A stretch of DNA of 62,258 bases, counting the filler, from Hausera hauseri (lineage: Eukaryota): the NCBI GenBank assembly GCA_046269625.1. It is 9 parts of 9 records of this genome, joined end to end, with 100 filler letters (N's around TTAATTAATTAA, not from the genome) between each part and the next. Parts side by side here need not be neighbours in the genome. Positions count along the whole stretch, not along the records: positions 9,295 to 15,950 come from JBJURY010077883.1; positions 16,051 to 23,127 come from JBJURY010039444.1; 7 more parts are not named here. One strand, 5' to 3'. Below, piece after piece: positions 1-37,593 of this stretch. A program made the position numbers and the translations under genes. Position 1 is the stretch's first letter; each line of letters begins with the position of its first letter. The notes beneath the pieces are model-generated. The model worked only from the letters and a program-made list of their open reading frames with translations. It was not told the origin of the DNA and searched no databases.

Positions 1-3000
1 GGAAGGTGATTGATCCTTCAGCCACACAAATTTGGCGAAGTATAAATCCTTTGGAATATAGGATTTGTTGTTGTTAAAGAGAAGACAAAATGAATCTGAG
101 CTGACCTCGACGAAGTAAGATTGTGCTGCACAAATATTTTATTTTGTGGGGTGGTCGTCGGGATCAGAAAGTTCAAATAAGGCAAGAATTTAAGTTCCGA
201 AGCGTGCCTCGTCTGGAGCACAACCGGTAGTGGTAGAGGGTATGTTGCGCCACTCTAGAAGAACAAATGGTAGAATGGACATCCAATTACGATGAGTGTC
301 AGCCAAAATTTTTAAAGAAACTTTCATTGTTCGATGAAACCTTTCAAGCGTCCATTTGCTTGAGGATGATATGGAGTTGTATGGAAATGGAATATCCCCA
401 AGTGTTTTACAAGCGATCTGAAGAGTTCCGATTCAAATTGTGGACATTGATCCGTTATTATGTAACGTGGGAAACCAAAACGACTGATCCAGATTTTTAT
501 AAAGGCGTCGGCTACTGAATCAGTGTTCGTTGAACGAAGAGGAACGGCTTCAGGCCAGCGAGAAGCACGGTTCATCATAGTAAGGATATATTGTTATCCG
601 TTGTCAGCAGGTAAAGGGCCAACGAAATCAAGATGAACTGTATGAAAGCGTGATGTACAGGGGAAATGGTAAAGCGGTGGTTTCAGATGTTTGCTTATTT
701 TGTATTTTTGACAGTCTACGCATTCTTTAACCCAGCCCTGTACATCTTTGCACATTGATAGCCAAACTACATGACGTTGAAGCAGGCGAAAGGTTGCTTT
801 TGAACCTGGATAATTGAGTGAATGCGTATGAAGGAAAGCTGTCTTTTGTAAAGGTGGTTGTAGAATTTTCTTTTTATTACCGGTATTCGACGTATTAAAA
901 TCAGTGCCATCAATGATCTCAAAGGATTTGAAAAAACTAAGGAATTCAGCAGACGGTAGATTTGACCTTAAGACTTCGGATGAGAAAGTCGGCTCACATG
1001 TAATGAGACCAACCGACCTTGATAGAAAATCAGCTACCAAATTATCTGTGCCCGAGATGTATTCCAAAACAAAACTGAATATAGACAGGTATGATATATG
1101 TTGCTCTTGCCTCGGTTATGGTTGTTTTAACGACATGATGTGCAAGAGCGGCTTGTGGTCAATTTGATTAACAAATGGACGAGAAAGAAGTAGGTGTTTG
1201 AAATGTTTTACTGCCAGAACTATGGCGACTAACTCGCGGTCAAATGTTGAGTAACGGCCTACGGATTATGTGAGTTTTCGGGAGTTAAATTCTAATGGTT
1301 CGTCGACGCCGTTAGAAATCTGGTGTAGTTCTGCACCGGTATTTGTGGTAGAGGCATCGGTGGTATGCATAAAATCTGCGTTGGGCTTTGGATAGGACAG
1401 TATTTCGACTGTTTTAGGCCTTCGAGTAAGTGATCGAATCTGGTGACTAAATCAGGAGTCCAGTGGATTAACCGCCACAAAGGTGCTATAAGCTCAGAGT
1501 AATGCGGTACGTATTTATGGATGAAATGGAGTGTACTTAGAAGCTTCTCATATCCGTAGTAGTCGTTTTTAGCGTTATGTTTTTCAACTGTTGTAGCCGA
1601 TCCGGTTGTGAAGAGTGGCCGTGAGGAGTGATAATTCGGCCTAGGAAATTAACACGTTTTTGAAAGAAATGACACTTAGCGAAATTGACTTGTAAATTTC
1701 TGTGATGCAGTCTGTGAAAGATAATACGGAGGTGTTATTAATGTTGTTTAGCAGATGTGGAGGCAACTAATATGTCATTAATATATTGATGAGCAAAGTC
1801 AAGTCCTGAGAGAACGGTGTCAATGTGTCGTTGAAAGTTTGGGAAGTGCTACATAAGCCAAATGGCATAAAGATATATTCATAGAGGTCAAATGGAGTAA
1901 TAACAGCAGTTTTTGAAATGTCATCAGGTGCAACCGGAATTTGATGACAAGCTTTATGCAAATCAATTGTGGAATACGTATGTCCTTTATGAGGTAAAGG
2001 GTAAGCATCCAGGGCTGTTAGGTTGTTTAACTTCAGGTAGTCACCACATGGTCTGTAAGTGCAATCTTTCTTTGTTACTGCATGCAATGGTGAAGCCCAT
2101 GGTGATTTTGATCTTCTAATAATACCAAACTTTTCGAGTTCACTGAACTCTAATTCAACGGCTTATCGTCTACAAGGTGACAGTGATCTGACATTTTGTC
2201 TGATAGGCCTTTGGTTTTTGGTGACTATGTGGTGATAAGTTGTAGAATTCGGCTTGAAATTAACGTCTTTTTTGAGAGCGCGGAAGCAAGTAGTTGTGAT
2301 GTAGGATTTAAGACTGGAGTCCAGCAATAAGAATGCGGGGGAATATTACTGGAAGACGTAGTGGCTGTAATTGACGTAGAATTACTGAACACGCTATTAA
2401 TGGCATTCGGTTTAACCGGTTGTTTCAAAATTGATTTGGTCCCACTTGCCTTAATTGAAAATATGGATAAATTGTTAAACGTATTGTTATCAGCAGACGA
2501 ACAGCATATCAAATTCACATTTGAATGAACAGAGGATGGAAAGAAGGTGTCCGATTGGTAGTCTGGTAGGCATTTGTTGGTATCTACAACCGAGTTTCTG
2601 CGCAGGAGACATCCATGCTTGCAGTCAACCAACAAATGATGTGCAACCAGGAAATCGGAGCCTATTATGGGCGATTTAATATTGGCTACGTGAAAGTTCC
2701 AAGAAAATTTGCCTGGTAGGTTGGAGAATGTGAAGAACAGTTTTGTGGTACCTACAATGTGCAAGTCTTAATCACAGGCAGTTAAGAGAGGAGGAGAAAA
2801 AATTGTAGTAGATGTAGGAGCGAAAGATAATGAAAGAAGTGAATAAACAGCTCCCGAATCGATAAGAAAGTCGATGTGTGACGTGTCTCTAAATAACAGT
2901 GCAGCTTTCAACAGAAAGACTGCAGAGGCTGTGTTGAAACAGCCATAGGATTGAAAGGTGTTTACAACGCCTGAATGTGCCGTATCATCTGTCGGCGTTA

Positions 3001-4450
3001 TTGGTTTTTGAGTGTTGCGGAGAGAAAAAAGAACGAAAAGGAGGAGGAGGAAGGAAAGCTGGAGTTGTTCTTATAATGTTTGCACCCCGGTACACATGAC
3101 CTAGCCTTAGACTGATACTTTGTGTGATACATACAATTAGGGGTGTCCACTGCAAAACGCTCGTTATAAAAGCGACAGCCCAAAAGACACTTTTTCTCGT
3201 CTCTATGGAACTTTTCATGATAGAAACAAACTATTTATCTGCCCGGCGATTTGTCACGAAACGAATGCTTAGAGAAACTACGCTCACTCGAGGGGCAGGT
3301 CTCACCTCGTCTAGATACAGCTAAACTATTTATCTGAGCTGTAGTGGCCGAAACTGACTGTTGCAGGGTGTCATATTGCTTTTGCATTATTTGTAGTTGC
3401 TGTGTGAACATAGTCGTATCTGTTTGTGATTGCGTAAGCAGGGTTGCAGCAGTTACTGGTTGAGTTGTTTGATTGTAGGATGTCAAAGCTTTTATCAGCC
3501 AGTAAGGCGAGTTTTTTAAGTGCCTTGAGTCGTCTACGACAGTAAGTAACGCTCTGATAGAAATGAGTAAAGAGGAAAGAAAATACCGACGAAGAAAATA
3601 GGCCTTGTTTGTCGGAGTGACGCCTAATGCTCTCAGCTGAGAAACTGCGGTTTTAAGAAAATCAGACGACTTTTGAGTTCCAATGACATGCTCATTAAAG
3701 TATTTTTGTATGATATTGTCAAATGCCGGATCGGTATTATATAGGACCGATTAATAGAGCATGTCGTATGGAGTCGAAGAAGTTAGTATCTCAGAAAGAT
3801 TGGTGACGTTTTGTTTTATTTGTGATGGAAGGAGTAGTTGCAAATTGTTAGCGCGCAGAAAAGAATCGGTGATGTGGTTGGCTTTGAGCCACTGTAAATG
3901 AAATTGTAGCTAGGTAAGGTTAGAATTTGTCTTATCCAAAAAGAAATCTACACAAAGAAGATTGTGAGAAGCAAATGGTGTAGATTCAGCAGGGCGACGA
4001 CCAGATCTAGTTTTGGTGGAATTTTTAGCAGAAGGATCGGGGTCTGATCTGCCACGGATACGAAAATGCAGAGTGAGATAAAAGATCGAATGTTTGCCGA
4101 ATTCAAAAGATGACAGAGAGTTGGAAGGGAGCAGGATCAAGCCGTTATGCATGAGGTAAAAGTCTGAGGTGCCGAAGAAAGAAGATAGTGAAGAGTAAAG
4201 AGTGTGCGCAGTATGTTTGCATGTAGCACGTAATGTATACACGAGCTTATTATGAGAAAAAACAAAAATGGAAAGGGAATTTAGTGCAGTGGACATGCTC
4301 GGTCCCTCAACCAGGCAACTCCTTGGTTGCGCAACGAACAATGAATAATATTGAAATATAAAATTACTTTGACTGTTGCCTTTTGCACTTTTTTGGTCCC
4401 CTTTCTCTGCCAACTATTGGTCCCCTTGAAGCCATTATCTTAGAATGACA
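1..4450 (-). mobile_element. Decayed Ty3/Gypsy LTR retrotransposon (gag-PR-RT-RH-IN); 3' end runs off the window start
   Basis: Minus-strand motifs in Gypsy order, split by many stops and frameshifts: gag remnant ~2990-3910; protease DFLIDSGAVYS ~2840-2872; [27 protein letters not shown] (1767-2087); RH/tether ISGTDNLVADFLSR; integrase zinc finger C..CQK and core HLDFVGPLP/RWPEAVPL/YHPQANG (324-1067). The 5' boundary is approximate. Confidence 0.93.
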
Positions 4451-9194: not shown

Positions 9195-9294
9195 NNNNNN
9201 NNNNNNNNNNNNNNNNNNNNNNNNNNNNNNNNNNNNNNTTAATTAATTAANNNNNNNNNNNNNNNNNNNNNNNNNNNNNNNNNNNNNNNNNNNN
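9195..9294. other. Artificial contig linker N44-TTAATTAATTAA-N44 (six-frame stop)
   Basis: Identical 100-nt linkers also occur at 15951-16050, 23128-23227, 31100-31199, 36536-36635, 41953-42052, 46302-46401 and 57452-57551. Confidence 0.99.
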
Positions 9295-9689
9295 ATTTTG
9301 TTTAATTCTATATGAATTTGTTTTATAATAAATGTTTTATAAACTTAAATAAATTGAAATTTGGGTAAAAATGAAACCACGGTAGGAAGAATTGAAGCCA
9401 AAAATGTTGGTTGTAATATCCAAACTGTAAGTTCTGTGGCTTCCACAAGCATTTCATCTGGCCTACATACAGTACATCCAAACTTCTGCTTACCGCTCCT
9501 CTAAAATCCATTGAGTTTCCAATTCATGACCGTAATAGTTCAGATTTCTGCTCTGTGGACATTGTTTTAATGCCACATTGCTCTGAAAATGTTTCTATCC
9601 TGTAATATGTCACCAGATAAAGTCAAATAATTTTGAAAACAGATGTAAACCAAATCCTCTGTGCAATTTTTCAGACAAGCCCTTGTCTT

Positions 9690-11640
9690 CTTTTATGGCT
9701 CGAGTTTCTAATTCGGTGAGGGAATAATTTTTCTCGGCCTTCTTTAAGGAACGTCCTCCATAACCAGTTGACTGTTCTAGTTCTTCATCTTCTCTTTTCT
9801 GCGTAAATTCATATCCAATGCCTTCTTTACTGGCGTCTATTTTGATTCTAAAGGGTAAGTTAAAGTCTGGGTACCGTAAAACGGGTTCGCTTGTTAATAT
9901 CTTCTTCATCGCGTCGAAAGCTGTCTGTTCGACATCCATCCATTTCCATTCTATTCCCTTCTTAAGTAGACGATATAGGGGTACATTAATTTTTAAATTA
10001 TCTGGCACATAAGTGGCAAAATATCCGCAGAGTCCTAGCCAGTGCCTTAACTCTTTTTGGTTCTGTGGTTCCATGCAATCTGATATCTTGTTTAATAACG
10101 ATTTATCTGGTCTAGATCCTCCTTCTCCAACTATATGGCCAAGGTAGGATACTGCGTTTTGAGACCATTTACATTAGGATTTAATTTCAATCCGGCCTGT
10201 TCTAAACGCATCAGCGTGTGTTCAATATCCTTCAAGTGTTCCTCTTCTGTTCTTGATGCTATCATTACGTCGTCTAAGTATGCGAAGGCATGGTCTAGTC
10301 CCGTTAGCATCTTATTCATCATTCGTGTAAAAATAGCTGGCCCGGTAGTGATACCGAACGGCATAACATTAAATTCGTACACGCTATCGCGTGTTTTAAA
10401 TGTCGTTTTATAACTATCCTCATCCTCTATCTCTACTTGCCAATATCCAGATTGTAAATCCAGAGTAGTGAACCATTTTGCTCACGAAAGTCTGTCCAAA
10501 GCCTCCTTTACTGATGGTAAAGGAAAGGAATCCTTCATCATAAGATTATTCAATGCTCTGTAGTCAATGCAAAATCGACATTTTGTAGTACCTTTCTTTT
10601 TAACCATGAGGATTGGTGAATACCAAGATCTATAACTGGGTCTAATTATATCGGCCTTAAGCATCCGTTCGACTTCCTTTGTTATCTCGGATCTCAGTGA
10701 ATGCGGCAGGGATACCATTTCGGCATCTTCTGATCTTCAAGATCTATTTCTTCATTTGAACAGGGCTTTTTCTTAAGTGGAATAGTCAATATTAGTGCTT
10801 TAGCCCTACCGATATCATCGTCATCTTTAGCGATCACTGATTTATATCGGCACAACAGTTCACAAAATTGACAATAAGAATCAGGAGAAAATTTAGTTTC
10901 TACATAAGGTGGAAATTCGGCATACTTGTAAGGCTTCTCTTCAATAGTTATCGACGACACTCTATATGTATCTCCTAGAGTAATATAAGCATGAAGCTTT
11001 ACGGGTTTCGGTGCGTTATTTGCTATTCTGATTGGTATACGACCGGAGTGTACTCTTGTCCGTACGTTACTGAGTGTCATATTTGGATTTAATGTCTCCT
11101 TTGGTTCAAAATATACTGGTTGATCGTTATCTTGTTGACCTTGAGCATAGGTTATTATCTTTGTTCATGGTGGAATGTCTTCGTCAACTGGTATCCACAC
11201 TTCCCCGAACTTCCTATCTATAGCGTTTCTTATACCTTTATTTGGTCTGATTTCTATTAATTTTCCTGTTTGCAAGTTGATCGCTATATTTGATAACCTT
11301 TTCAGTAGATTACAGCATAAAACTATGTCGTCTGTTAATTGTTCCATAACTGCTAATTCGTGACGGAAAAACTGTCCAACTATTTAAACTTCTGGGTTCC
11401 ATTTAAACATCGGTTTCGACATTTGGCCAAAGGCTCCTGTACTTCCTAGATCTTTTGTAAACGGTGGGTATAATTGTCTTCTGAGCGTTTAAATCATTTT
11501 TAACGTAAAACATGTCCGACCCTGCATCAATTAATGCGTAAACTTCCCAGTCTTCGATAATAATTTTAGCAAAGGGTCTTCCTTCTATTACTGTTCCAAA
11601 ACAGTTTGATGCAACTTTTGGGCGTTTAGTCGTCGATATT
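9690..11640 (-). pseudogene. pol: Ty3/Gypsy pol remnant (aspartic protease, reverse transcriptase, RNase H)
   Basis: PR: GRPFAKIIIEDWEVYALIDAGSD (~11585-11517). RT: RFCIDYRALN..DSFPLP, WFTTLDLQSGYWQ, YEFNVMPFG..FAYLDDV. RH: LRYPDFNLPF..DASKEGIG..AEKNYSLTELE. Confidence 0.95.
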
Positions 11641-12022
11641 TTATGTCAGTTGATTCGAATCTCCGGAGAGGATACTATGTTCTCTGCCAATTGCCTTAGT
11701 TCTCAGTTTGGGTGTAATTCATTGTTTTCGATGTTTAATTCTTCCGCTCCATGAGTACTGATTAATTGTTCTCGGTTGTTGGTGTGCGGTTCTATGTTCC
11801 AGAAGGTTCTTAACCTTGAGTTTTCCAGACAGGCGATTTAGTCTTTATATTACCAGTTTCTGTCGGGGAGTAAAACATCCTAGGATCATTCCCGGACTGT
11901 CGGTAACACATTTTCCGTAAGACTCCGTAACGTTTCGTTCCTTCATAAGGGTCTTCAACATTAATTGTCCTTTTATAGATTTCCGTTTGATATGAACTCA
12001 TTGATTGTTTGTCACAGACTTC

Positions 12023-13922
12023 TTAGACTGGAGCGGTAGGAGGTAACATATGCAATGATGCTTTAATGACAGGGTACGTCTTGTGTCTGTTTATTCTTGA
12101 AAGTGCTTCTCCTCCCTTAGGCTCCTCATCATCTGAATTATTTCTTCGCATACTAGGTTTTGTAAATTTCCACTTGTACAAGAACATAGGCCTTCCTTTT
12201 CGTTTACAATTATGATAACCGACATGGCGTTCTGAGTCCGACTTCCATCTGTTTTCTTCGTATGCTTTTAAAAACTTTCCAAAAGGCGTTATGATTGCAG
12301 TCAGTATTTTACATGAAAATCCGGTCAATGTAAATATTTCGTAGTCATTAATTACTGCTTGGATGATTGCCTTAACCATTTGTATCAAAAAATATATCGC
12401 TGAAAATCCGGATGCCGCTTGTCCAAAAATCAAAAAGTCTTCCCCAAATTCTGTAGAGTATTTCTGTGGTTACACGCTGGTAATCGTGTATCATATACTA
12501 CCGAGGCCATGGCTCGATTTAATTCGTGTGTTCGCTGTCACGGAAAAGCGAGGAAGTGCCTGAAGGCTTCGATTTCCTTAGGCCTATATATGTCTTTCGA
12601 CGAGGTATCTTGAAATTTATCGTCCATAATTCCTTTCGCAAGATTTGTTCCTGTTAATTTATTTGGAGCGGCAGTAATACCTTTATTTGGTAAACTAACC
12701 CAGTCTGTTTCACTACGTCTAAACATGGATTCTCCCAAGCTTGCTTTACAATCTTTAAAAATGGTTGGTCGGTTTGCATTATCCAATAACACTCTTGTCA
12801 ACGGTGTAGCTAATCTTGGTATATTCTGATAAATAACAGGAAGTTCCTGAATGAAATGTTTTTCTACCACATTGATGGGTACATTTCTCTTTTCACATTC
12901 GTAAGTTAACAATACTTCGCCCGTGACTTGACCGAAAATTCCTTCCCTCATAGGGATTATTGGAGAAGCCAGATCTGGGTTGGCGTATATAAGGGCCAAT
13001 TTCGTCCTCATGATTTCGGTATCTAATTTACAGTCATTCGTTATCATTTTGTGATATAATTCCGCTATTCCGACTTGTCCTTTTTAATAAAGGTAATCGT
13101 CACTGTTCTTCAAGTAGTCCTCAATCCGGATATCCTGTGTTTCCAACTTATAGGTTCTCGGATTTATCTCGGTTTCGGCTATGAAGAATGCCTCATAGTT
13201 AGTAGCGAACATTACTACGTAACAACGGGAAATCATCTCCTTTTTAATAAATTTCAGTCCATGCTGGTCCCAGACTAGTATAGTGGGTGTGGAGTGTTCT
13301 GATACATCTTTGCGTGTCCTTGAGTTGGTATCAGATTTATCCACATATCGCTTCCCGGTTGTTTCATTAAACTTCAGTTTCTTGATTTTAATAAAATTAC
13401 AACTTCTTCCAGAGGGAGGTTCCCATATTATAACAGAACTTCTAAAAGCACGATTACCACATTCACTTGTAGACCTTTTCCAGTGTCGTATTCTGCTCCG
13501 TAAAAATGTCCGCTATGCATATCTAACCTTCCGACCACAATTTGATATGCCCTAATTATCTTTCCTGGTTGCATTTCTAGTTGCATACTGTCCCATTGTA
13601 CGCTTCCGGTCTCCTTGGCCTGTTTGCAGTTTTGGCGTTCTAGATTCATCGGAATTAGAGGAGTTGTTGGTTTGATTATTGAGGAATGTCCGTGTACTAA
13701 CCCACAGTGAAAAATGTCACGAGATCGTCTCAGCATACATTCCATTCAATCTAACGATATCAATTCTTGTTGTTGGTACAGAAAGTAATACTTCTCTCTT
13801 GTTTCCAACTTGTGCGGTCTGGCATCTTCGCACACTTCTAAATCCATTAGGGAATATCTCTACCCTAGTTTAAATTTATCGCAATCGTAGACAGTAACAG
13901 CGCCTATTTGCTTTATTAGCAT
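12023..13922 (-). pseudogene. env: Chuvirus/herpes-gB-like class III viral fusion glycoprotein (env), decayed, copy 1
   Basis: N-terminus AVTVYDCDK..RYSLMDLEVC..YFLYQ..ECMLRRSRDIFHCG..HSS; central helix NDCKLDTEIMRTKLAL..NPD..GIFGQVTGEVLLTYECE..ELPV; C-terminal hydrophobic FGQAASGFSAIYFLIQMVKAII..GFSCKILTAI. The same motifs appear in the same order in copy 2 (37594-39394). Confidence 0.82.
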
Positions 13923-14451
13923 TATTTGGGTGTGAAGGTTAACTAGCCAGCTTGATTCACTCTTTCGGTAGTTAATATATGTTGTTGTCAAATTACATAA
14001 CATATCGTCGAGTCTATTACTATTACTGATCCATTTGTCTTCTTCCTTGTCTTATAGTCTTGATCAAGTTACTTCGCGGGGCAGCTTTCTCGCCTCTCTT
14101 CGTGCTAAGCCTATAGCTTTGTTGTTTCGTGCTGTCTATTAGGATTTATTTTGATACTTTTCTCAATTCCTCATTGGTGTTTTCTACTATGATCTTTTCG
14201 ATTATCGCTTCATCGGTTAAGTTACTTTTAGATAGTTTAAAACGTGAACTTTTCATCGTTCTAGGTGCATTAAATATGGCTTTTTCTTTATCATCTAGTG
14301 CGTCACGTCAAAGGCTTGAATAATTTACAATCCGTATCAATTTTTTCATTAGTTCGTTTAATTCTTCATTGTCTGTACTGAAAGTAAGGATCGACAATTG
14401 TCTTAACTCTCTAATCAATTCTTCATTATAGTCAGTTTCTTCTCGTATCTT

Positions 14452-15934
14452 CTAAGTCCTACCGACTGGGCGTTTCTGTCTTGGGACATTGTCTGCCGAT
14501 TCGCTCAGTGGTACTAAATTCTTATTGTATTGTTCCTTGTCCTCATCCGTCTGTAAATACTCTAAATACATTGCAGCATCTCGTACTCCCATAATTTGTC
14601 CTACGAATTGTTCTGTCTTGGCCTTACGTGTGGCCTCTTCTTTAGTTTGTTCATTGGTTACTATTGCCACTATTCGATTTGTTTCGTCGGGAATAATTCC
14701 CACGTCTATTAACTGTTCTATTTCATTTAGTATTCTACCTCTAAAATAAAATCTATAACTAAGCTCACTTGTTCCGCCATTATTTAATAACCATTCTCTT
14801 ACGTCCCTCACATAGGAATATGTAGTTAACTCATTCTTTTTCGTCCATCCACTCGGAAGATATTATTACTTTCATTGCTACTTCCGGTTTAGCCCTCAAG
14901 ATTTTAGCGTATTTCCTTATCAAAAGTTTCGGTATCGTGCTATAAATTGTATTCTCATTAGATAATTTAGTTAAGGTCGGAATAAGTTGTCTTAACTTAC
15001 TTTTAGTAATGTTTACATTAATTAGCTCGATTAACTCTTTTTCAGTTAGAGCTGAATCCAGAAGCATCGCCACATTGAATCTCCTGTTCTGCGGACATGT
15101 TTTTACCTCATTTAGTCGTACTGGAGTCACGGGCTTTTCAATTATCTCATCTAAGTATGCATCCTATTCCGGTTCATTTCCAATATCTGGAAGCCCACAA
15201 TCTATTAAGGCTGTATTCGTTCTTTGAACATTTTCTCGGATTTCTTTCAATCTTGGTCGTATTTATTTCCTCTGCGTAGTTCGGAAACCTATTCCGTTTC
15301 CGCAGGCATACTGAATCATTTTCAATAATGCACCTAATTAATTAGAATTGATGAATCCATTTTGATAGTAATCAGTTAGTTCGATAATTACATTTCTTTG
15401 CCATCTTTGTACGAATTCTCGCTTGTTTTTAATTTCCGATTCGGTAAAAGCATATATGTTTCGGTAGATTTCGAGCTCTTTTACTAATTCATCTAACCTT
15501 ATTGCTCTTTGTTTGGTTTTAATGCAGGTTTCTTCAACTTGTCGCATTTTAGGCATTCGTTGCCTCATCGTCTCATCATTAATTTCTGCCATTTCTACTA
15601 ATAGGAAGGCTAGTTCGTACATCTCATTTATGACTTTTGAATCGGGATCTATTGCATCTAGCAATTTCTTTACAAACTTAGATTCCTGAAAACTAAGAAG
15701 TTGGTCATCTCTTATCTTCGCCAACTCAGTATGGAATTTCTGATCTGATCCGGCCATCCATTCCTTTGGTTTATGCAAGAATTTTACTGCTTCTGTTAGA
15801 GCTACCTTATGCCCTAGACACATATCTAGGGTTTCGATATCCTGGATTGAAATCTCGTCGATAGGTTTATCTGTTAAATGTTGGATTCCTTCTCGTCGGA
15901 TGCTTCTTAACCTTGAGTAAAAATTGCAAGTCAT
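14452..15934 (-). pseudogene. Retroelement accessory region: helical domain, HEAT-like segment and ubiquitin-like domain
   Basis: ORFs 15338-15934, 14831-15130 and 14452-14811. YRFYFRGRILNEIEQLIDVGIIPDETNRI resembles the ubiquitin-fold C-half (L.F.G+.L.D...L.DY.I). It occupies the same position as 40004-40600 in copy 2. Confidence 0.55.
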
Positions 15935-16310
15935 ATTTCGCTTTTCTGTANNNNNNNNNNNNNNNNNNNNNNNNNNNNNNNNNNNNNNNNNNNNTTAATT
16001 AATTAANNNNNNNNNNNNNNNNNNNNNNNNNNNNNNNNNNNNNNNNNNNNAGAAATATTTAGTTTGATTCTTCAAGCGAAATAAACGCATTACCTACTAT
16101 TTGACTGAATAAAAACAATAAACAAAACCCATTACTATTTACACAAATAATTTTGATAGCCTTTGTGAACATGGGTATGTCATGTTCCAGTCAAATATTT
16201 TACCTTTTGAAGATGTATCGCATATCTGAATTGAATTTGGCTCTCAAAAGAGTGGATGAAAACGATGGAGAGTTTTGTGGATCACATGAATTATCATTTG
16301 GTTGCCATGT

Positions 16311-16549
16311 AATTTCGTAAAATTAAAACGCATGTTCTTACAAATTTGACAGTAGTATAAATAAGAAAAATTTTAATTTCGTAAAATTAAAACGCATCTA
16401 CTTACAAATTTGACAGTAGTATAAATAAGAAAAATTTTAATTTCGTAAAATTAAAACGCATCTACTTACAAATTTGTCAGTAGTATAAATAAGAAACATT
16501 TTAATTTCGTAAAATTAAAACGCACCTACTTACAAATTTGTCAGTAGTA
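16311..16549. repeat. 64-bp tandem repeat, ~3.7 copies, just 3' of DDX21
   Basis: Unit AATTTCGTAAAATTAAAACGCATCTACTTACAAATTTGACAGTAGTATAAATAAGAAAAATTTT starts at 16311, 16375, 16439 and 16503. No spacers. Confidence 0.95.
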
Positions 16550-16584
16550 AAAACAAAAGCAATAATCTGCAACATTATATTTTA

Positions 16585-18290
16585 CTAAAACTTCCTGCGC
16601 TTACTATCACCAAACGGCTTATTATGACCAAACGGCCGTTTAAATCCATTTCTGTTATAGTTGTTATTATGATTAGCAGATCTGAAATTATTATTTTCCA
16701 CTTCCTCCAAATCGGGTAATTCTACTAATTTCGTCAATTTAACCCGACAATTACTTTCCCATCCACTGATTAATTGTTGTTCATATTCGGACGGAAGATC
16801 AAACACAATCGACTTTCGGTCTTTGACAAATTGCACTGACTTGATCTGATCGGCTTCATCTGCCTTCAAAACTCGTCTCAAACAAGAAAATACAAATCCC
16901 TTGGCCTTCAATTCTGTATCATTTGTTACCATGAATGCGGTGAATCCTTCCTTTGATGTGAGCACCGATCTTGGTTTCATTTCATCAACATTGCCGGACA
17001 ATTTGGCCAAAGCCAAAGCCAATGCACGTTGTTGTCCAAATGTATCGATTAGTGTTTGTGCACTAATCATAAACAAATCAGAAACAGATTCCGGAATCTT
17101 CAGGAACGTCGAAATTGTGTCCTGAAGTGATGCCTCAACAATCGAATCTGCTGATGGAGCGGAGATTTTCTTAAACGTTATTCCAGTTCGTTTTTCGACA
17201 TTCTTCAAAGCATTTGTATCCTTGAAGTCGTAGAAGCAAATACACGTTCCCGTCCTACCAGCACGACCCGTACGACCAGCTCGATGAATGTAATCCTCCA
17301 CATCATGTGGTGGTTGACACTGAATAACAAGATCAATCTCCGGAATATCCAATCCTCTTGCAGCGACATTTGTCGTAATCAGAACGTTGTATTTACCTTC
17401 CCTAAATTTTTTCAAAACCAACTCCCGTTTTTCTTGAGGAATATCACCGTGCAGCACATGGGCATCATTGCTCATAGTCGAATGAGCTGCTAATTCATCA
17501 GCATCTTTCTTTCGCTCGCAGAACACAATGCATTTCGATTGACTGCTGCTGTATACGCGAATGCAATCAGCAATTGCACCGTTGCGTTCTCTCCATGGAC
17601 ACTGCAATGCCAAATGTTGAACGGCTGTGACCACTTTCACGTCCGTTTTCTCAATTAAATCTATGCGTTCTGCATCATCGGTCAGATATTTACGAACCAT
17701 GTCATTAATCCACTCGGGCAATGTTGCACTAAACAACGACGTCTGTGGATGTCTATCATCAGAATAAAGAGACGAGATAATCTCATCGACAATATCCTTA
17801 AAACCCATATCCAACATTCGATCAACTTCATCTAACACGACAAATTTGATTTTCTGTAAATCTAACTGTCCATGTTCAATTAGATCCTTCATTCTGCCAG
17901 GTGCTCCAACGACGATATCAACACCGGCCTTTAGCGCATCTATTTGTTTAGGATAAGGCACACCGCCATAAATTGAGATCACTTTCAATTGGCTACTAAT
18001 AATGCTTTCGAAATCACCAGCAATTTGGGTTACCAATTCTCTAGTCGGTGCCATAACGAGCACTCGCGGTTTTCTACCCGGTTTCAGTGCTTTCTTAGAT
18101 TTTTCCAATTTGCATGTTATAGGCAATGCAAATGCAAATGTTCTCCGGTACCAGTCCTTGCTCGTGCAATAACATCTCCACCTTCATTAATGTGATTAAA
18201 CGTCACATGTTGGATGGGAAAGTGATCAAATTCCACGTACCAAATTTATCGAGCATCGATTCGCATAAGGGTAAATTTTCCAATTCTCCA
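16585..18290 (-). CDS. DDX21: Nucleolar DEAD-box RNA helicase DDX21/DDX50 family; 513 open codons with a frameshifted 5' end (possible pseudogene)
   Basis: Motifs APTREL, DEVD (typical of DDX21), FSAT, LHGDIPQ, TNVAARGLDIP and HRAGRTGRAG, plus a GUCT-like C-terminus. Upstream FPIQ..GDVIARARTGTG is one base out of frame with TFAFALP (~18135-18160). No introns seen. Confidence 0.93.
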
Positions 18291-19870: not shown

Positions 19871-19907
19871 TCAAATGTTTCAGATTAGCTCGACGTAACT
19901 TCTTTCG

Positions 19908-20020
19908 AGGCGGAAGGTCGGGGCCCGATTATGGGCCCGACGCGGCGTCAACGGACGCCTAGCCGTGTCCAACCAAATAGGCCAGAGGGTGCCGGTCGCT
20001 GTGGGCACCATATTACCCCC
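19908..20020 (-). mobile_element. PPT plus start of a Gypsy 3' LTR (no gag-pol attached)
   Basis: Minus strand reads GGGGGTAA (20020-20013) then TATGGTGCCCACAGCG... It is about 80% identical by eye to 58228-58340, which is the PPT/3' LTR of the contig-9 Gypsy element. Confidence 0.85.
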
Positions 20021-21969
20021 TCCCCGAATTTTGCAGATGCCTACTCGAACATGGGTAACACATTTAAAGAACTACAGGATCTCCCCAATGCAGTCCAATG
20101 CTACCAACGGGCAATTCAAATTAAGCCAACATTCGCCGACGCTCATTCCAATTTGGCAAGTGTGTACAAGGACACTGGCAACATCAATGAGGCCATTACG
20201 TCGTACACGACTGCACTCAAAATAAAGCCCAATTACCCAGAGGCGTTTTGCAATTTGACCCATTGTCTGCAGATCGTGTGTGATTGGGCAGATTATGATT
20301 TGCGTATGGAGAAATTGGTACGGATAATCCACGAGCAACTGGAGCAAAAGAGATTTCCATCGGTGCATCCTCATCATACTATGTTGTATCCTCTGACACC
20401 TCATCAGAGGAAGGGCATTGCTGAAAGTCATGCCAAACTGTGCTTGGACAAAGTTGCTCCACTCCACAAGCCAAACTACATGTTTGACAGGCATTTTGGT
20501 GGAGAACGTCTGCGAATTGGCTATGTCAGTTCCGATTTTTGTAATCACCCAACAAGCCATCTGATGCAAAGTATTCCCGGAATGCACGATAAATCACGAT
20601 TTGAGATTTTCTGCTACTCACTCACATCAGATGACGGTACATCATTCCGACAGAAAATTCAGATAGAAGCAGAACATTTTGTGGATCTGACAGCAATACC
20701 AAACAACGGCGACGCCGCCGATCGTATCGCCAGTGATAAAGTGCACATTCTCGTCAACATGAACGGGTACACGAAAGGTGCACGTAACGAGATATTTGCA
20801 CTGAAGCCGGCACCAATTCAGGCCATGTGGCTGGGATATCCAGGAACGAGTGGTGCTAGTTACATGGATTACATTATAACGGATAGTGTCACATCTCCAA
20901 TTGAGTATGCCGATCATTATTCAGAAAAATTGGCATACATGTACTACACGTATTTCGTCGGTGATCACAAACAAATGTTCCCTCATCATACTAACAAGGT
21001 TATTCTCAAAGTATTGGGTTACAGTAGCAGATTCAATTTCATCACTGCATGTGGGCCAAATATCGATCAGATATTTCGTCTGGGTTGTGTGCAGGATTAC
21101 ACATCAGACAGTGTTCCTGTTGTGATGTTGGATTCGTTTCATGAGATAAATGACATGGTAACTGTATATCAATGTGTGTGTATGTTTAATTATCACTTGT
21201 AATGCAGATAACAAACAAACGTGAGGTGACAATGATAAACGGCATCACCGTCATCAACGGCATGGCCACCACAGAGACCGTTAAGAAATTCTCTGGAGAG
21301 AAACATCCATCGAACATCATCATTACATCGAGGAAACATTACAATTTACCAGACAATGCAGTCGTGTTCTGCAATTTCAATCAGCTGTATAAAATCGGCC
21401 CAGAAACACTTCGCATGTGGGTGAAAATACTCAAGAATTGTCCGCGATCCGTTCTATGGTTGTTGCGATTTCCCGCTGCCGGCGAGAAAAACGTGTTTAA
21501 AGCATTTTCAGATTTCGGTCTGAAAGATGCGCATTTGCGTGTAATTTTCAGTGACGTTGCACCAAAAGAGGAACACGTGCGACGAGGACAAGTAGCTGAC
21601 ATTTGTCTGGACACTCCTCTGTGTAATGGACACACGACAGGAATGGACGTTTTGTGGTCTGGTTGTCCAATGGTCACGTTGCCCGGCGAGACGTTGGCTA
21701 GTCGAGTGGCTGCCAGTCAGATGAACACTCTCGGTTGTCCAGAAATGATAGCAGAGACAGAGGACGAGTATGTCAGTATCGCAGTAAGATTGGGTACTGA
21801 CCCGAAATTTCTCGAATCCGTCAGGAATAAAGTATGGCGACAAAGGTCGTCGTCACCTCTATTTAATTGTCAGACATATACACGCAGTTTGGAGAGTTTG
21901 TATGTGGAGATGTGGCGGAATTACACGAGTGACAAACACGATCACATCACAAAATTAAATAGGAATTAA
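20021..21969 (+). CDS. OGT: O-GlcNAc transferase, last ~3 TPRs plus the complete catalytic region; one 50-nt intron (21158-21207); 5' part missing
   Basis: Motifs [100 protein letters not shown] and [15 protein letters not shown] intron joins the two ORFs in frame (EINDM|ITNKR). No disabling lesions seen. Confidence 0.96.
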
Positions 21970-23127: not shown

Positions 23128-24240
23128 NNNNNNNNNNNNNNNNNNNNNNNNNNNNNNNNNNNNNNNNNNNNTTAATTAATTAANNNNNNNNNNNNNNNNN
23201 NNNNNNNNNNNNNNNNNNNNNNNNNNNGATAGATCTTACTTTCACTTTTTTTCATTGTAAAAATATTAAACGTTTCACTCTGCGTCCCTGAAATTGTTCC
23301 CACGAGACCTAGTAAAGTTCTTACCTCTATTCCAGAAGATTCGACGTCTGGCCTCCCTACTCTAAAGACGAGAGGAGAAGACACCAGCACGCAATTAGCC
23401 CATGTCATATGCATGTAAATTAAATCCGACGTTTGTACGCCAGGAGCAGGAATCAGTCCTGCTTAAAAATAACAGTACTGTAATCTAATTTTGTCCGGGA
23501 AAAAAGCAGCAGAAATTGAAAACAGTTTAGACGAATGAACAAATGAAGTATGAATTATTTCCTAACAGAACTTGTCTGTCTGTTAGAGAATTATGAAAAA
23601 TAAGATGCAAGCAGAAATACCTGGTCATGGTTTAGTTTATTCTCTTTCTGTCTGTCCTGGTAATAACTCACAGGCGAGTCCCGTGCAGGTTTCTTTGTTT
23701 TATTCAACGTATAGGGACAGATAATGTATGTAATTTATATGATTTGATTTGACTTTTATCCACTGTCTGATGACCTCGATGCAGTTGTACGGTAATGTGC
23801 TTTCTGGTGATTTGTTACCGACCACTATCATTTGTTTTGTTCATGTTTAGGTTGCATTACATTACAGCAGTAATTTCGCAGTAAAATATCGCGGCATGGT
23901 TCTGTAAGGATTGTCATGGCCGGGAGCGGGTACTGAGGATAAGCTCTCAGTTCTCATTAAATACTCACATATGGCCGGCGCAAAATATAGCCAAAACAGC
24001 CAAGTCCAACTCCTGGCCTTCACGCGGCGGAACTGTTTACACTGACATGAACAGGAACGAGGGTCGAGTCTCTGGCGCCTTAAAACCAGATGCTTCGGGT
24101 TGATGAGGCTCGTTGGCCACCATAGGCTGCTCATCTTGGAGATGGAAAACTCTGATTCTAAACCCCTGCTGCCCTAGCAGAAGTACGTAGAGGACCGGAC
24201 GGAAGGCAACGGGAAACCACCGTCTAGTAATTTCCAAGAT

Positions 24241-24782
24241 TTGTCATGGAAATCTGTCAGTATAGCACAAAAAACAGCATTCCAGAAAATGAAAAGCATA
24301 TTGTGTACGACAAATCTGGCATTAACATTGAGAAAGAGAGTCCTGCAGTGTTATATCGAACCCATACTAATGTATGGCTGCGAATCTTGGACACTGAGTA
24401 AAAAATTGGAAAACTCTTTAAAGGCAACAGAGATGTGGTTTCTCAGAAGAATGTTAAAAGTCCCTTGTAGAGCAAAGAAAACAAATGAAGAGGTTTTACA
24501 AGAAGCAGATGCTGAAAGAACACTTATCAGCAGGATCAGAAAGAAACAAGCATCTATGATTGGTGAAGTTTTAAGAAGAGAGGGTCTGGAGAACTTGGTT
24601 ACCACAGACAAAATATCAGGAGGTAGAAGCGGTGGGCAGCAAAGAGTGAAGTGTCTGGATGGTTTGAAGAAATGGCTCGGAAGTAGGTCAACAGCAGAGA
24701 TGATTGGAATCACCAGGAATCGCGAGAGGTGGAGATTCATGACAGCCTGTGCTTTGCAGCACGGAACCTGGTGATGATGATA
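24241..24782 (+). mobile_element. RTE-clade LINE, 3' end (5'-truncated)
   Basis: RVLQCYIEPILMYGCESWTL..LKATEMWFLRRML..TNEEVL..R.RWR is the typical RTE post-RT region. It ends in a (GAT)n tail. Confidence 0.9.
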
Positions 24783-31099: not shown

Positions 31100-31199
31100 N
31101 NNNNNNNNNNNNNNNNNNNNNNNNNNNNNNNNNNNNNNNNNNNTTAATTAATTAANNNNNNNNNNNNNNNNNNNNNNNNNNNNNNNNNNNNNNNNNNNN

Positions 31200-34100
31200 G
31201 GGTTTTTAATGATTTTTGTTGAATTAATTGTTTTTTGTCGTTTCACTGGAACTCACTTTTTACTGATGTAATGATTGGTTGACGGGTTTATGAGATAGAT
31301 TATCTCAGATTAATTTTATTTAACATCAGAACCTCTGACGTGCTCCTTCAGGTGCGTTTGGTTTCTTCTGCTCATGATGGAATATTACTATGTAATAAAG
31401 CTGTTTATGACAGAAATAAACTCAAATTTCAGGTCATTTGTGTCTTTTATTGATTTATTTGGCTCAATTAAATACTTTAGATGTCAACCAAACAAACAAA
31501 TACAATCAGTTCTAACCGTAGCTGAAGATACCATTACATTAGAAAAGCTAGCATAGCTAGCCGACAAAAGTCATGAGATTCTGCATTCACACACATCACC
31601 GATTGGCGCCGCTACATTACAAACATCTCCAACACAATCTAATGCAGAAATTGCGGCATTAAATAATCAGATAAATTCTATACGTACTGAAAACGCCGCA
31701 ATATAGCAGGCAATTTGAGTCCTGATATCAAAACTGGATGTTCTATTTATGCCGAGACGAGATGCTTTCGCGGCGGACCGTAGCCGCACTTCGTCACAAA
31801 ATTCTAGATCTATGAGGTCTTCTGTGCGATTGATGGTATGTTATTATCACAACAAAATCAAAAGCAACGCTAATAAATGTTGCTTAGGTTGCAAATTTTA
31901 TGCATCTACACTACGAACACCCGACATTGTCTGCATATATTACAATTAATCCAACAACAAAGCTCCTAAGTGCATTACTGTCTGCATATTTTCTACTCCA
32001 CCCAATTCACCTTACCGTCACCCTTCAAACAACGCAAAACTTCCACCTTCAAAAAACTTATAAAGCCGTCAGATGTTTCGGCACATAATGGCAAAAGCAA
32101 TTCTTTTCATTCTAACAGCCGCATATACACCGTCTTCATGCTAATTGCCGTTTTATTTACTAAACCAAAGCAATCAATTAGTTTCTTGATTGATTCAGTG
32201 GCGGACGTCTCCCTTTTGCCCCTATCCATTAAAATACCAATCACATCTCCGTCAACTACTAAATTATATACAGCAAACAGTCAAGCCTTGCGTGTGCTAG
32301 GCACTTCCAAAATTTCTTTTAAATTACAATCTTTTCACGACATTTTCACGTGGACTTTTATCGTGGCTGATACCCAATCACCCATACCGTAACGAGTTTT
32401 TCTGTCTTTTTATAACTTCTTTGTAGAATGCAGACAACGTCGGATTGTTAAAAATACTCAACAAATGCAACGGGTACAAATAACTCTACCGGTTGCACAG
32501 CCTACCTCATCTGTCAAATTTATATTAAAAAGCTCATCAATTAGTGTAAATACGAACTTTAATAATATCATTTTGAATAATTTTATGTTTTCGTCAAATT
32601 TTGATATTAACCATACAAAAAACGTTGACAAAGACGATTTAGGCAGTTCCGTATCCGCCGTTTCTTGCACAACAACCAATCAGTCACCTGTTTTGTCAAC
32701 AACAGCATTTACTTCACTGAGTCGTGAAATACAGAAATACGTAACTAAGCCTTGCTTCCAAACCATCAAAAAAGAGCCAACATTTCGACCAGCTGGCACG
32801 GCGTTCTATCATATCATCACCGGAAATTCTAAGCCCATCAGTCAAAACCTCCAACCACTTTAACCACACCGTCGAAAGGCAGTACAAGCATAATCCTATG
32901 CTCTCGAACAAGCAGGCATTATGCGCCGTGTGAAATCGTCATGGGCATCTCCACTTCATGTTGTACCAAAAAAGATGGCACATTCTATCGATGTGGAGAT
33001 TATGGTCAAGTTAATAACGTTACGACCATGGACGCATATCCATTACCACTCATATAGTAAATCCTGCATTCACGTCACAAAACCACCATCTATTCCACCA
33101 TAGATCTTGTAAAGGCCCATCACCAGATACAAGTAGCTCCAGATAACATTAAGACATTGTCATAATCACACCTATCGGTCTCTGAATGTGCATTCATGCC
33201 GTTCAGCTTAAAAAATGCAGCACAAACATTTCAAATGCACATAGACTTTTTCTAGACATTTTCTATCTTTTCAGGTTTACCATTCACATATCCATACATC
33301 GACGATATACGGGTCGCATCAACTTCGTCTAGCAGCACAAAGAACACCTTAAACTAGTTTTCCAACGATTGCACAATAACAAATTGCATGTCAATTTCAC
33401 TAAATACTCATTCTTTCAGAAAAAGTAAACTTTCTCGGCCACATTATCACACTTGACGGACATAGTCCACAGCCTAATAGAGTCCAACAATTAAGAAATG
33501 TAGAATTACCCAAAACCACAACAGATATGCGCAGTTTTCTCTGAACCTTGCATTTTATCGACAAATGCGTACAACACTGAAGTTAGTTAACTGCCCCTTT
33601 CGCTTAACTAGGAGTAGAAAAGAAAACAGCCTTTGTACCGGACGCCAGACCTTGTAAACTAATTTTACGAGCTGCGTAACAGACTCAAAACAGTTGAGAT
33701 CTTAACTTACTCTAGCACTGGCGCTGATCTTATCCTAACAACTGAGGCATCAACAACAAAGCCGGAGCAGTTTTTCATCAAACTTTTCAAGGCACAAACG
33801 AACCACTCAAATTTTTCTCATGAAAAGTACAACCACAAAAACATCACTATTCTACGTTTTATAGAGCATTGTTGGCCATCATTTTAGCTCTTAAACACTT
33901 TTCACACCACCTCATCGCTCGCTCCTTTACCATTTAAACTGCCTACAAGCCTCTTGTTCATGTAATGAGCATGAAAAATCCATCACCTCGGCAGGAACGT
34001 TATATTTCAACATTCAACTTTAAAATTTGCCATATTTCTGGCAAGGAAAATTTAATTGCTGACTTTTTGTCTCGGTCGGCTGGTGCGACAAGTGTTACAT

Positions 34101-35844
34101 CTATTTTCGCCAAAGATCAACTAATTCAAAACTCTCAAACCACTGAGATACTGAACCAATACAAAGCAGTCCAAATCATCGATGGCGTAGCCATGGACAC
34201 CTCGCAAACTTGGAATCACTTACCGATTTTAGCATAGCTCTTCAACAGACAGCTTTTAACCACGCTCATTCATTGCATCACCCAGGAGCGAAGGCTACAT
34301 TCCGCCTCCTTAAACGCCATGTAACACGACCATCGACGAGATCGGACGTACAGGGCTTGATTAGGCAATATGTGGCATGCCGAAAAAAAGCTAGACAGTT
34401 TAAGCTACCATTATTTATTTTTCCTATACATCTCTCTTCGAATCAGTCCATTTAGATATTGTTGGTCCTTTGCCATCCGATAATGGACATCGATTCGTTT
34501 TAACAATGATGGACCGAGCGTTTCGTTAGCCTGAGGCCATTCGCCTTCGCTCCATAAACACGGACTCCAGCGCCGATACTTTTATAATGATTTGCATTAG
34601 CAGGTACGATTCGCCACGTTATATTGTCACAGACCAAGGCACAAATTCATATGGAACTTATTCAAATCCTTATTTAATCGACTGGGCATAAACTACATCC
34701 ATACAACCCCATGACATCCCCAGTCGAACGGTTTACTGGAGCGTTTCAACAGAACACTTCAAATTTTAATAAAAATCTTAGCAGAAACTCATGTGAATTG
34801 GACTACCATCCTTCCATTCGTATTAGTTGGGTGGTGCAACACTCCATCTACAATCACAGGCTGCGCACACGCAGAAGCACTCTTCAGCACTACAATACGT
34901 GCACTTTTCGAACTAAGTGACTTAGACAGTACACCAACTGAGGAGACAATACGGTCTGCACAAAACCATTTCGTCCGGCTAAGTCAGGACTCCTTTTGCA
35001 AATTCATACATGGCGACAAGTCATAATTACCCGAATCGTTATTTAACGCAAAATTCTTTTGGTTGAAAAATCCTACACCATCTGGATTTCAACAACATTA
35101 CTTAGGATCATTTCAATTACTAAATGTAACCTCACACTTAGTTACGATAAATAATAACGGAAAAGAAAAAAACGTTCACATAATCAACGTCAAAACAGTA
35201 CTTTTGTTAATGACACTCCTGACTCATCGCCTAACCGCACACCAACTTTTCTACAGTACTTCAATCACTCATCGAAATTTAATCCTTCCTGTACCTTGCT
35301 AACACCTCAACCTATCACTTCAAAATCACCGACAACTCAAACAAATGCACTAATCAACGTACTGGCCCGTCCTCAATCTGCTAATATTTCACATTACGAC
35401 ACAATGTCACCTCAACCATTTCAGCAGACAGCTAAACAACAAATCAGAGAACGCATGTCAGTTACATTCAGAAAGTACAGTAGGGAACAAAATATCGACA
35501 CAGTACAACGTCTGGTACATACAAAATCTGAATAAGACATAAACACTTCTCCTTTTTAGTGGTTTTATCCTTTCAGTTTTAATCCTTATTGTAACGTCGT
35601 GTTTGTTACGGGGGATAATATGGTTCCGCGGTTATGGGTGTCGCCACAACTTTTGGAAACCGGCTATCTTTCGGTGACATTAGACCGGCGTGCTGTTCGA
35701 TTGGACCGTCGCCCGACAGTTTTCGTACGGTTAGACGAATTGGGTCCTCTGCCAACATTTATTAACGTTGGTACAGTTAATGATGTTAAATGTCACGTGT
35801 CAAAATGCATACTGAATCCGATTTACAAATGGATGCATCACATA
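31200..35844 (+). mobile_element. Decayed Ty3/Gypsy element with PPT and 3' LTR
   Basis: gag remnant; PR FLIDSVADVS; RT SSWASPLHVVPKK..YIDD; ISGKENLIADFLSR; IN HSLHHPG, HLDIVGPLP and WTTILPFVL. PPT GGGGGATAA at 35610-35618; LTR ~35619-35844 ending ..CATCACATA. Confidence 0.93.
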
Positions 35845-36535: not shown

Positions 36536-36635
36536 NNNNNNNNNNNNNNNNNNNNNNNNNNNNNNNNNNNNNNNNNNNNTTAATTAATTAANNNNNNNNN
36601 NNNNNNNNNNNNNNNNNNNNNNNNNNNNNNNNNNN

Positions 36636-37322
36636 CTTCATCAACATTAGCAACGTATGCGTGCCTGTTGTTTATCCTCTCTCCATGTCTTTTCTGACTG
36701 TACCCTATCCTTTTGTAATTATCGGTATACGTATTTTGTCCTCTTCTGCTCTTGTCCAATTTTGTATAACATTCTTCTTCCCTGTGCCCTCTATTGTGAC
36801 ACCTATTGTATTTTATGTTTATGCAATTTCGCCTTATGTGTCCTTGCTGACCGCACCCGTAGCATATTATGGGTTTCCTTCCCGGGCAATTCCTGTTAAT
36901 GTATCCTTCTTTCCCGCAACCAAAACATCTTGGTGCTTGTTGGAGGTTGCATGTCCTGCTTGTATGCCAGTCCTTCTGGCACGATCAGAATTTCATCCTA
37001 TTCTTTGCCTGCGCATTTTACAGTTTGAAATCCTTCCTTTCCTGTCTTGGTTTGTCAAGTTTCATCACTGCCACATCCCGGTAACTCCGTCGACTCTCTA
37101 TAGTGTATTCTTTGACTGTGTCTATCTCTTGCGTCTTCTTTGCCACTTCCTGAACTTTCTGTATTTTCGCTTTGATTTGTTCTAAATTTTTTTCGTCGCT
37201 GCAAACAGGCACAGGACCTCGGTTTCCCAGTCTGTCTCTTATATATTTATGAAGTCGAAGTATCTCTCGCATTTTCCAGTAAAGGTTTCCACGTTGTCGC
37301 CTTTCTGGAATTCTCTCGGCAT
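36636..37322 (-). pseudogene. gag: gag of a second, nested LTR retrotransposon (internally deleted; up to 4 CCHC knuckles)
   Basis: MPREFQKGDNVETFTGKCERYFDF, followed by SCQKDWHTSRTC, CFGCGKEGYINRNC, CYGCGQQGHIRRNC and RCHNRGHREEEC. Confidence 0.85.
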
Positions 37323-37361
37323 CAACTTCTTCTCAAAGAAGTCTCTTGAAGCGTTGATCGC

Positions 37362-37593
37362 TGTGAGTAGATTGCGTCTATACCATCCCGACCTCAACAT
37401 CACTTGATGATTACAAGATTGATTTACCCATAAGATATTTATTATAAAAGTTGGTATAACAATTATCTTCTTCACTCATTAAATGAGTCTTATTTTCCTC
37501 CTTTCCTGAATTTCCCGACTTTCTATTGGCTATTTATTAAATTAACTTTAAATTGAATTTAAACATTAATATCCGTTTAAATTCCTCCTCACA
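37362..37593 (-). mobile_element. 232-bp 5' LTR of the nested element
   Basis: Termini TGTGAGGAG...CTACTCACA (8/9 inverted match), with internal TATA-like and AATAAA sequences. It truncates the glycoprotein just after the TM region. Confidence 0.8.

Follow-up and report, generated by a model that had tools for sequence, protein, structure and literature searches.

A decayed Ty3/gypsy element with a gB-type envelope glycoprotein ahead of pol in the Hausera hauseri assembly

Does an envelope glycoprotein of the chuvirus and herpesvirus gB type stand upstream of pol within one Ty3/gypsy retroelement, or have two elements come to lie side by side? The question is raised by a 6.7-kb contig (positions 9295-15950) in a 62,258-nucleotide stretch of DNA, here called the window, from Hausera hauseri assembly GCA_046269625.1. 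The window consists of nine short contigs joined by identical N44-TTAATTAATTAA-N44 spacers, and sequences on either side of a spacer are therefore unlinked. An initial annotation, made from the sequence without database searches, had described in this contig a decayed glycoprotein running through its cytoplasmic tail into a Gypsy protease, reverse transcriptase (RT), and RNase H, and had taken the order gag-accessory-env-pol to be a new architecture. We find that the sequence in question, element 1, is very probably a dead copy, truncated at both its 5' and 3' ends, of a Burro-like Ty3/gypsy long terminal repeat (LTR) retrotransposon of a flatworm. The env-before-pol architecture is already published, and element 1 is a divergent addition to it.

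The glycoprotein and pol domains of element 1

Element 1 encodes, in order, a ubiquitin-like domain, a gB-type envelope, a protease, an RT, and an RNase H. All nine motifs quoted in the initial annotation were recovered on the minus strand, in the order stated, by three-frame translation. The 5' end of the element is cut by the contig end, and its features from there onward are as follows.

14993..15950, minus strand: accessory coding region, cut by the contig end; a relic open frame, not recognisable as gag
14662..14992, minus strand: short helical module, then a putative ubiquitin-like domain, split by a frame change (homologue profile)
14101..14470, minus strand: basic motif and helical stretch, where relatives carry a Bcl-2-like domain (partial alignment to element 2, described below, and to homologue P0130)
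13890..13946, minus strand: signal-peptide-like hydrophobic stretch directly before the YDC motif, at the same place as the hydrophobic stretch of homologues
12430..13889, minus strand: decayed, predicted ectodomain of a class III fusion glycoprotein of the chuvirus-G/gB type (PF24664, structure model)
12023..12429, minus strand: membrane anchor (FGQAASG region) and cytoplasmic tail (PF24664 positions 540-610; hydropathy 1.82)
11640..12022, minus strand: env-pol linker, with the base make-up of the rest of the element and no LTR-like repeat seen
11260..11600 (borders approximate), minus strand: aspartic protease, decayed, with an atypical catalytic motif at 11534
10952..11209, minus strand: beta-type domain, conserved, lying between protease and RT where Burro has its dUTPase-like domain
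10173..10709, minus strand: Ty3/gypsy RT (PF00078, E 7.4e-26)
9694..10173, minus strand: connection and RNase H, truncated near 9690 (PF17919, E 2.3e-22; PF17917)

The glycoprotein occupies about 640 codons, from the signal-like stretch at 13946 to a stop at 12023, close to the 630 or so estimated initially. It is broken by stops and by two frame changes, near 13450 and 12480, and is shorter than its homologues at both places. Of the four single-frame envelope pieces scanned, three match PF24664 (Monjiviricetes_fusion), following one another as in the profile. These are 13745-13431, which falls short of the curated cut-off (E 4.1e-6), 13083-12538 (E 9.6e-15), and 12469-12026 (E 1.5e-10). The fourth, 13512-13087, gave no match in the Pfam scan. 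The signal-like stretch is less hydrophobic than that of element 2 (mean hydropathy 1.15 over 19 residues, against 2.01), and the anchor and tail are 49% identical to element 2 over 49 residues.

The longest single-frame stretch of the glycoprotein (13467-12490) was modeled with stops entered as X and with 82 aligned sequences, giving a pLDDT of 84. Among predicted viral structures, chu-like glycoproteins matched this model best (E 1.8e-12). In the PDB, herpesvirus gB came top with a best E of 3.5e-3, no match reaching E 0.001; gB fills every row shown as far as rank 47, and baculovirus GP64 stands at rank 50. An independent structure aligner also placed five gB chains first (Z 7.5 to 5.8, middling values), then thogotovirus glycoproteins, and the best gB alignment (Z 7.5) has a root-mean-square deviation of 7.9 over 253 residues. 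Among the matches listed, identity to viral structures is at most 27%, and across the 82 aligned sequences the cysteines of the fold vary little or not at all. GP64 was rejected as the closest fold, lying far below gB (E 0.14), and the structure search of the model showed no match to an F-type fusion protein. The predicted fold is that of a class III, gB-type fusogen, a result of the comparison with chuvirus G, gB, and GP64 that the initial annotation had proposed.

Beyond the linker, the protease, RT, and RNase H stand in Ty3/gypsy order, and the copy stops within RNase H, homology to most relatives ending at 9694. A protease-to-RT profile of six homologues matches 11395-10769 (independent E value [iE] 4.8e-25), and the element 1 protease matches, by tblastn, that of the metagenome locus L002 described below. 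The beta-type domain aligns with six homologues, with seven invariant columns; the dUTPase family PF00692 matched weakly in one of seven members (E 0.068), and a profile search of the PDB with this domain gave no match. The best PDB matches of the RT are Ty3 RTs, 4ol8 (E 8.6e-38) and 7q5b, then 8r0s (E 2.6e-25), with foamy-type and HIV RTs no better than E 2.5e-14. By sequence, the RT is of Ty3/gypsy type, as its motifs had first indicated, the references in the direct contest being other than BEL/Pao and copia. The copy is dead: it has stops, frame changes, an envelope shortened at two places, a truncated RNase H, and no integrase.

Relatives and the region ahead of env

A profile search with the envelope found 463 proteins at E up to 0.001, of which 150 were listed. 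A word-index search for longer env relatives returned none, nor were env relatives found in viral_contigs and the phage collection. We scanned the 14 top homologues (the first 16 matches minus two short fragments). A protease follows env in the same chain in 11 of them, one weakly; RT and RNase H follow as well in five; and a gag marker precedes env in four. The same homologous chains match element 1 env and pol collinearly. A metagenome scan yielded four env loci, L001-L004. L001 is one 3703-codon frame encoding CCHC gag, a ubiquitin-like domain (weak), env, proteases, RT, RNase H, and integrase, and L002 resembles it, with an open 5' end; no LTR-like repeat pair was found in either within the DNA examined. 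In L003 an in-frame stop separates gag and accessory domains from the env that follows, and L004 is a free-standing, distant env.

Sequence comparison places both env and RT of element 1 with intact single-frame polyproteins. In an RT tree of 11 rows, element 1 groups with six RTs of env-fused polyproteins (SH-like approximate likelihood ratio test [SH-aLRT] 96), and in an env tree of 41 rows a group of 13 rows, supported at 99, contains it along with several of the same elements. Two homologues, P0136 and P0141, lie outside its group in both trees; neither tree contains a Burro sequence. Because env and RT both fall with the same intact polyproteins of env, protease, and RT, we take env and pol to be one element and not two nested ones, as the initial annotation had supposed; no repeat longer than 15 nucleotides from the env-pol junction was found elsewhere in the window. 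Contigs of public run X1 supply 23,850 records over all 30 bins of element 1, junction included, and only 2% of these contigs run on unlike. Depth is far less in the flank bin 9295-9516, summed depth being no copy number. Run X1 contains 29% of the sampled words, and its dips in depth are not read as findings. No RNA data set was listed as containing the sequence, which carries no weight as to expression.

The relatives have further features of their own. An in-frame TGA at 3058-3060 of L003, between the gag-accessory frame and env, is either a read-through site or a mutation. An exonuclease-like domain occurs in a downstream accessory frame of L001 (12085-13473; PF00929, E 0.001), with a similar one, by eye, in L002 (10617-12107), and in both the L001 and L002 polyproteins integrase is followed by a C-terminal extension that includes a membrane-like stretch. 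Aspartic-protease domains are tandem after env in P0276, P0132, P0126, and L002; P0276, of 4844 residues, has up to seven aspartic-protease Pfam stretches together with ankyrin and C2H2 matches. P0131 (HBK71150.1), an env-protease-RT-integrase polyprotein, is filed as a Flavobacteriaceae metagenome-bin hypothetical protein and is probably animal DNA in a bacterial bin.

Upstream of env in element 1, the relic open frame at 14870-15950 was equalled by none of 500 shuffles. There was no Pfam match at cut-off in 14993..15950 and no Atlas match in 15341-15949. A gag reading of 15950-15341 was rejected, no profile, Pfam, CCHC, or Atlas result supporting it; the SAM-like look of this segment we take to be an impression, not a result. 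A profile of eight homologous segments matches both halves of 14662..14992 in order (iE 1.4e-4 and 3.7e-4), and the same module matches L003 (iE 1.6e-4). Atlas pointed to CLU_N, ubiquitin, and Rad60-SLD clusters at 0.81-0.86, as leads only, and Pfam ubiquitin is weak in the relatives' equivalent (E 0.005-0.03). The segment 14101..14470 is possibly, from its alignment, the degenerate first half of a Bcl-2-like domain.

A second, distant element of the same kind lies in contig 36636-41952.

37593..41952, minus strand: element 2, comprising gag, ubiquitin-like, Bcl-2-like, and env regions
41880-41410, minus strand: gag, with a CCHC knuckle at 41151
40450-40118, minus strand: ubiquitin-like domain (homologue profile match)
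39862-39503, minus strand: Bcl-2-like domain, a weak label
39391-37593, minus strand: env, with no pol after it in this contig

Element 2 is 38% identical to P0130 over the accessory region and env, and its envelope is 26-31% identical to that of element 1 over ectodomain pieces. A putative ubiquitin-like domain thus stands upstream of env in both elements of the window. The anchor of the element 2 envelope is followed by another gag-like frame with zinc knuckles (approximately 37330-36636), which is a nest, a rearrangement, or an assembly chimera; nests or chimeras therefore do occur in this assembly.

Alternatives to a proposed in-frame, infectious element

Several results weigh against reading element 1 as a Burro-like element with env fused in frame to pol. 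In contig 9295-15950 there are no LTRs, the integrase profile gives no match, and no gag-profile or CCHC match was obtained, both of the latter matching only contig 36636-41952; of the order initially proposed, accessory region, env, and pol stand, and gag was not found in this contig. The Bcl-2-like profile found no match in 14101..14470. For the Bcl-2-like domain of element 2, a PDB profile search put Bcl-xL at E 0.005, behind a designed helical protein; Foldseek, with a model of pLDDT 60, filled nine of its first ten rows with Bcl-2 family members, none of them better than E 0.19; and a VIA search, which was not discriminating, gave no clear match. Both trees are quick searches, the element 1 envelope is a long branch, and P0140 shares element 1's group in the RT tree and falls outside its env group. 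At the junction itself, 37% of 500 shuffles of 12022-11640 were as good as the real sequence in an open-frame test, so that the described passage from tail into protease holds for the order of the domains, with no significant open-frame signal at the junction of this copy. The distance from anchor to protease is about 298 codons in element 1 and 123-197, by motif, in eight of 12 homologues (P0139 gave 363, to a later protease, and three homologues gave no pair). L003 has its in-frame stop, and the single frame is therefore not universal. Among the matches listed, no X1 contig spans the junction.

The envelope might have been a passenger, or have served only for budding into internal membranes, in a family that never moved between cells. 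The element 1 copy is dead and the element is known here from sequence alone, which leaves room for such a history; the near-invariance of the fold cysteines across 82 sequences speaks against it, as does the retention of env with pol over deep divergence, seen in our two trees and in the survey PMC13524379. We regard this as quite unlikely. Going by its domain content, the lineage of element 1 may well once have been infectious.

A single GAG-ENV-POL element could instead have kept pol in a frame of its own, unfused to env and expressed by way of read-through, frameshift, or splicing. This would fit a junction no more open than shuffles, a linker longer than in most homologues, and L003, whose stop before env shows that such breaks occur; in addition, PMC13524379 describes separate open reading frames and allowed gaps of up to 2000 nucleotides. 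It fits poorly with env and protease in one chain in most of the top homologues, and with the tail and junction taken together, which have fewer breaks than 97.6% of shuffles (2.4% being as good). The Burro envelope is also in frame, as described in PMC6431247. We judge a separate pol frame unlikely, and by analogy with its relatives the family of element 1 would have had env and pol fused in frame. Least credible is a chance neighbourhood, in which a chuvirus-derived or BEL/Pao envelope is nested beside an unrelated gypsy pol or repeats are joined in an assembly chimera: the assembly is fragmented, element 2 runs from env into a foreign gag-like frame and not into pol, and no single listed X1 contig bridges the junction, but env and RT are collinear with the same homologous chains and group alike in two trees, there is no junction repeat, and few X1 contigs run on unlike.

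For a Burro-like element with an in-frame fusion, a course of events can be proposed from its anatomy and from general knowledge of membrane-protein synthesis. In intact members, a single long frame would encode everything from gag through the accessory domains and env to pol. An internal signal sequence would direct the env ectodomain into the lumen of the endoplasmic reticulum, leaving the gag-accessory part cytosolic; the membrane anchor would stop transfer, and pol would be made on the cytosolic side as an extension of the env tail. The chain could then be cut by host signal peptidase together with the protease or proteases of the element. Gag and pol would package RNA at a membrane bearing env trimers, and an enveloped particle would bud and fuse with another cell, most plausibly one of the same animal, and bring the element into stem or germ cells. 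The ubiquitin-like domain and the Bcl-2-like domain of relatives would probably act on host ubiquitin pathways and apoptosis, roles that are guessed.

Host, neighbouring sequence, and known elements

The remaining contigs hold host genes and other repeats. The spacers and the two host genes with long frames are as follows.

9195-9294, 15951-16050, 23128-23227, 31100-31199, 36536-36635, 41953-42052, 46302-46401, 57452-57551: spacers, each N44-TTAATTAATTAA-N44
16585-18183, minus strand: DDX21/DDX50-like helicase, one 532-codon frame
19889-21969, plus strand: O-GlcNAc transferase (OGT), two long frames

These host genes, the helicase and OGT, have very long exons. In a quick tree of 33 rows, 32 of them chosen from 120 matches listed and without a named triclad or monogenean, the helicase and one protein at 60% identity are sister to trematodes plus cestodes (SH-aLRT 91). 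Since the helicase is sister to those two classes, the host is probably a flatworm outside both, free-living and monogenean hosts not being separable by this comparison. An OGT search found, among the matches listed, none above 74% identity and did not advance the placement. A tandem repeat with a unit of approximately 67 bases, in three to four copies, lies just beyond the helicase gene end (16330-16550). Another gypsy-like lineage has left three decayed copies, with remnants of RT and integrase, at 336-3750 (minus), 31970-34858 (plus), and 59601-62038 (minus), and the two of the three that were placed are far from the env-carrying clade in the RT tree. Contig 46402-57451 (11 kb) is nearly all degenerate simple repeat with a 4-base period; it and the N-spacers dominated the repeat scan of the window. 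A frame at 24178-24774 (plus) looks like the end of a non-LTR retroelement RT, and 57758-58183 (minus) is presumably a host exon for an Integrator subunit.

Chuvirus glycoproteins captured by BEL/Pao elements were reportedly described by Dezordi in 2020. The glycoprotein of element 1 shares its family and fold with chuvirus G and those captures but is tied, unlike them, to a Ty3/gypsy pol.

The closest described layout is that of planarian Burro/GYPSM1, giant gypsy-like LTR retrotransposons (Jurka 2007; Grohme 2018, as described in PMC6431247) in which gag, ubiquitin/SUMO-like, BCL2, env, and pol share one frame (PMC6431247). According to the same paper, Burro has a frame of approximately 4,900 residues, a 30-kb size, and MATH, BIR, and ankyrin domains; its env is similar to mononegaviral glycoproteins and is also linked to gypsy Env and F proteins; and decayed copies with stops and frameshifts occur in Dugesia japonica. 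Element 1 resembles this description in the order of ubiquitin-like domain, env, protease, dUTPase-like position, RT, and RNase H, in its probable flatworm host, and in its decay. The gag and BCL2-like domains of the Burro order appear in the window only in element 2, the latter weakly. The likeness is drawn from the published description, and MATH, BIR, ankyrin, gag, integrase, and LTRs are not visible in the 6.7-kb contig; element 1 env, for its part, is placed by predicted fold with class III (gB) fusogens.

GAG-ENV-POL Ty3/gypsy elements with gB-type env are also catalogued as "ancient errantiviruses" in flatworms, nematodes, and bryozoans (Chary and Hayashi, PMC13524379), those of flatworms being intact, multi-copy elements from Schmidtea, Macrostomum, and Prostheceraeus. 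Element 1 shares their Ty3/gypsy pol, upstream gB-type env, and platyhelminth setting but is a decayed copy; it has the gB-type class III envelope and the env upstream of pol in one element by which they are recognized. By eye only, Schmidtea env rows in the supplement share YQE...C...HCG..S and TP...RF..K...C...TNY with both window envelopes. Nematodes have non-canonical metaviruses in which env precedes pol (Sacco et al. 2022, as cited in PMC13524379). These likewise are Ty3/gypsy elements with an RNA-virus-type glycoprotein between gag and pol, although they belong to another phylum and, per PMC13524379, do not form one clade with the flatworm elements. The initial claim of novelty, which depended on the architecture not having been catalogued, fails because it has been, for Burro/GYPSM1 (PMC6431247) and in PMC13524379, and PMC6431247 makes out of date the assumption that the env of errantiviruses invariably lies 3' of pol and derives from baculovirus F. 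We file element 1 as Burro-like and as a GAG-ENV-POL errantivirus. The filing stops short of Burro proper, because the likeness shown here does not extend to LTRs, gag, BCL2, in-frame fusion, kinship to the Burro RT, or a triclad host. Within 30 of the 55 flatworm rows of PMC13524379, two Gyrodactylus assemblies and one Protopolystoma assembly are listed without an ENV-POL envelope. There is some chance, though it is unlikely, that the host lies outside the catalogued free-living flatworms (for example, a monogenean) and carries a deeply diverged and very abundant Burro-like lineage, equipped with accessory domains of its own (15950-14993). In that case single-polyprotein enveloped retroelements with ubiquitin-like and Bcl-2-like modules would date back to early flatworms.

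The layout has thus been in print since 2019 for planarians and was later surveyed across animals. What is added here is a further two divergent families from a single flatworm assembly, evidence from fold for a class III envelope, and a set of intact single-frame relatives in metagenome data, together with a link between the Burro and GAG-ENV-POL errantivirus literatures, which the main text of PMC13524379 does not draw (it mentions neither Burro, polyprotein, ubiquitin, nor Bcl). A dead, truncated copy is no help in learning how a membrane-spanning gag-env-pol polyprotein is cut and packaged; no bench test of pol made as a fusogen tail was found in the literature searched. If the proposed course is right, pol would be synthesized as the cytoplasmic tail of a class III fusogen. 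We take such a polyprotein strategy to be closer to that of flaviviruses or togaviruses than to that of retroviruses.

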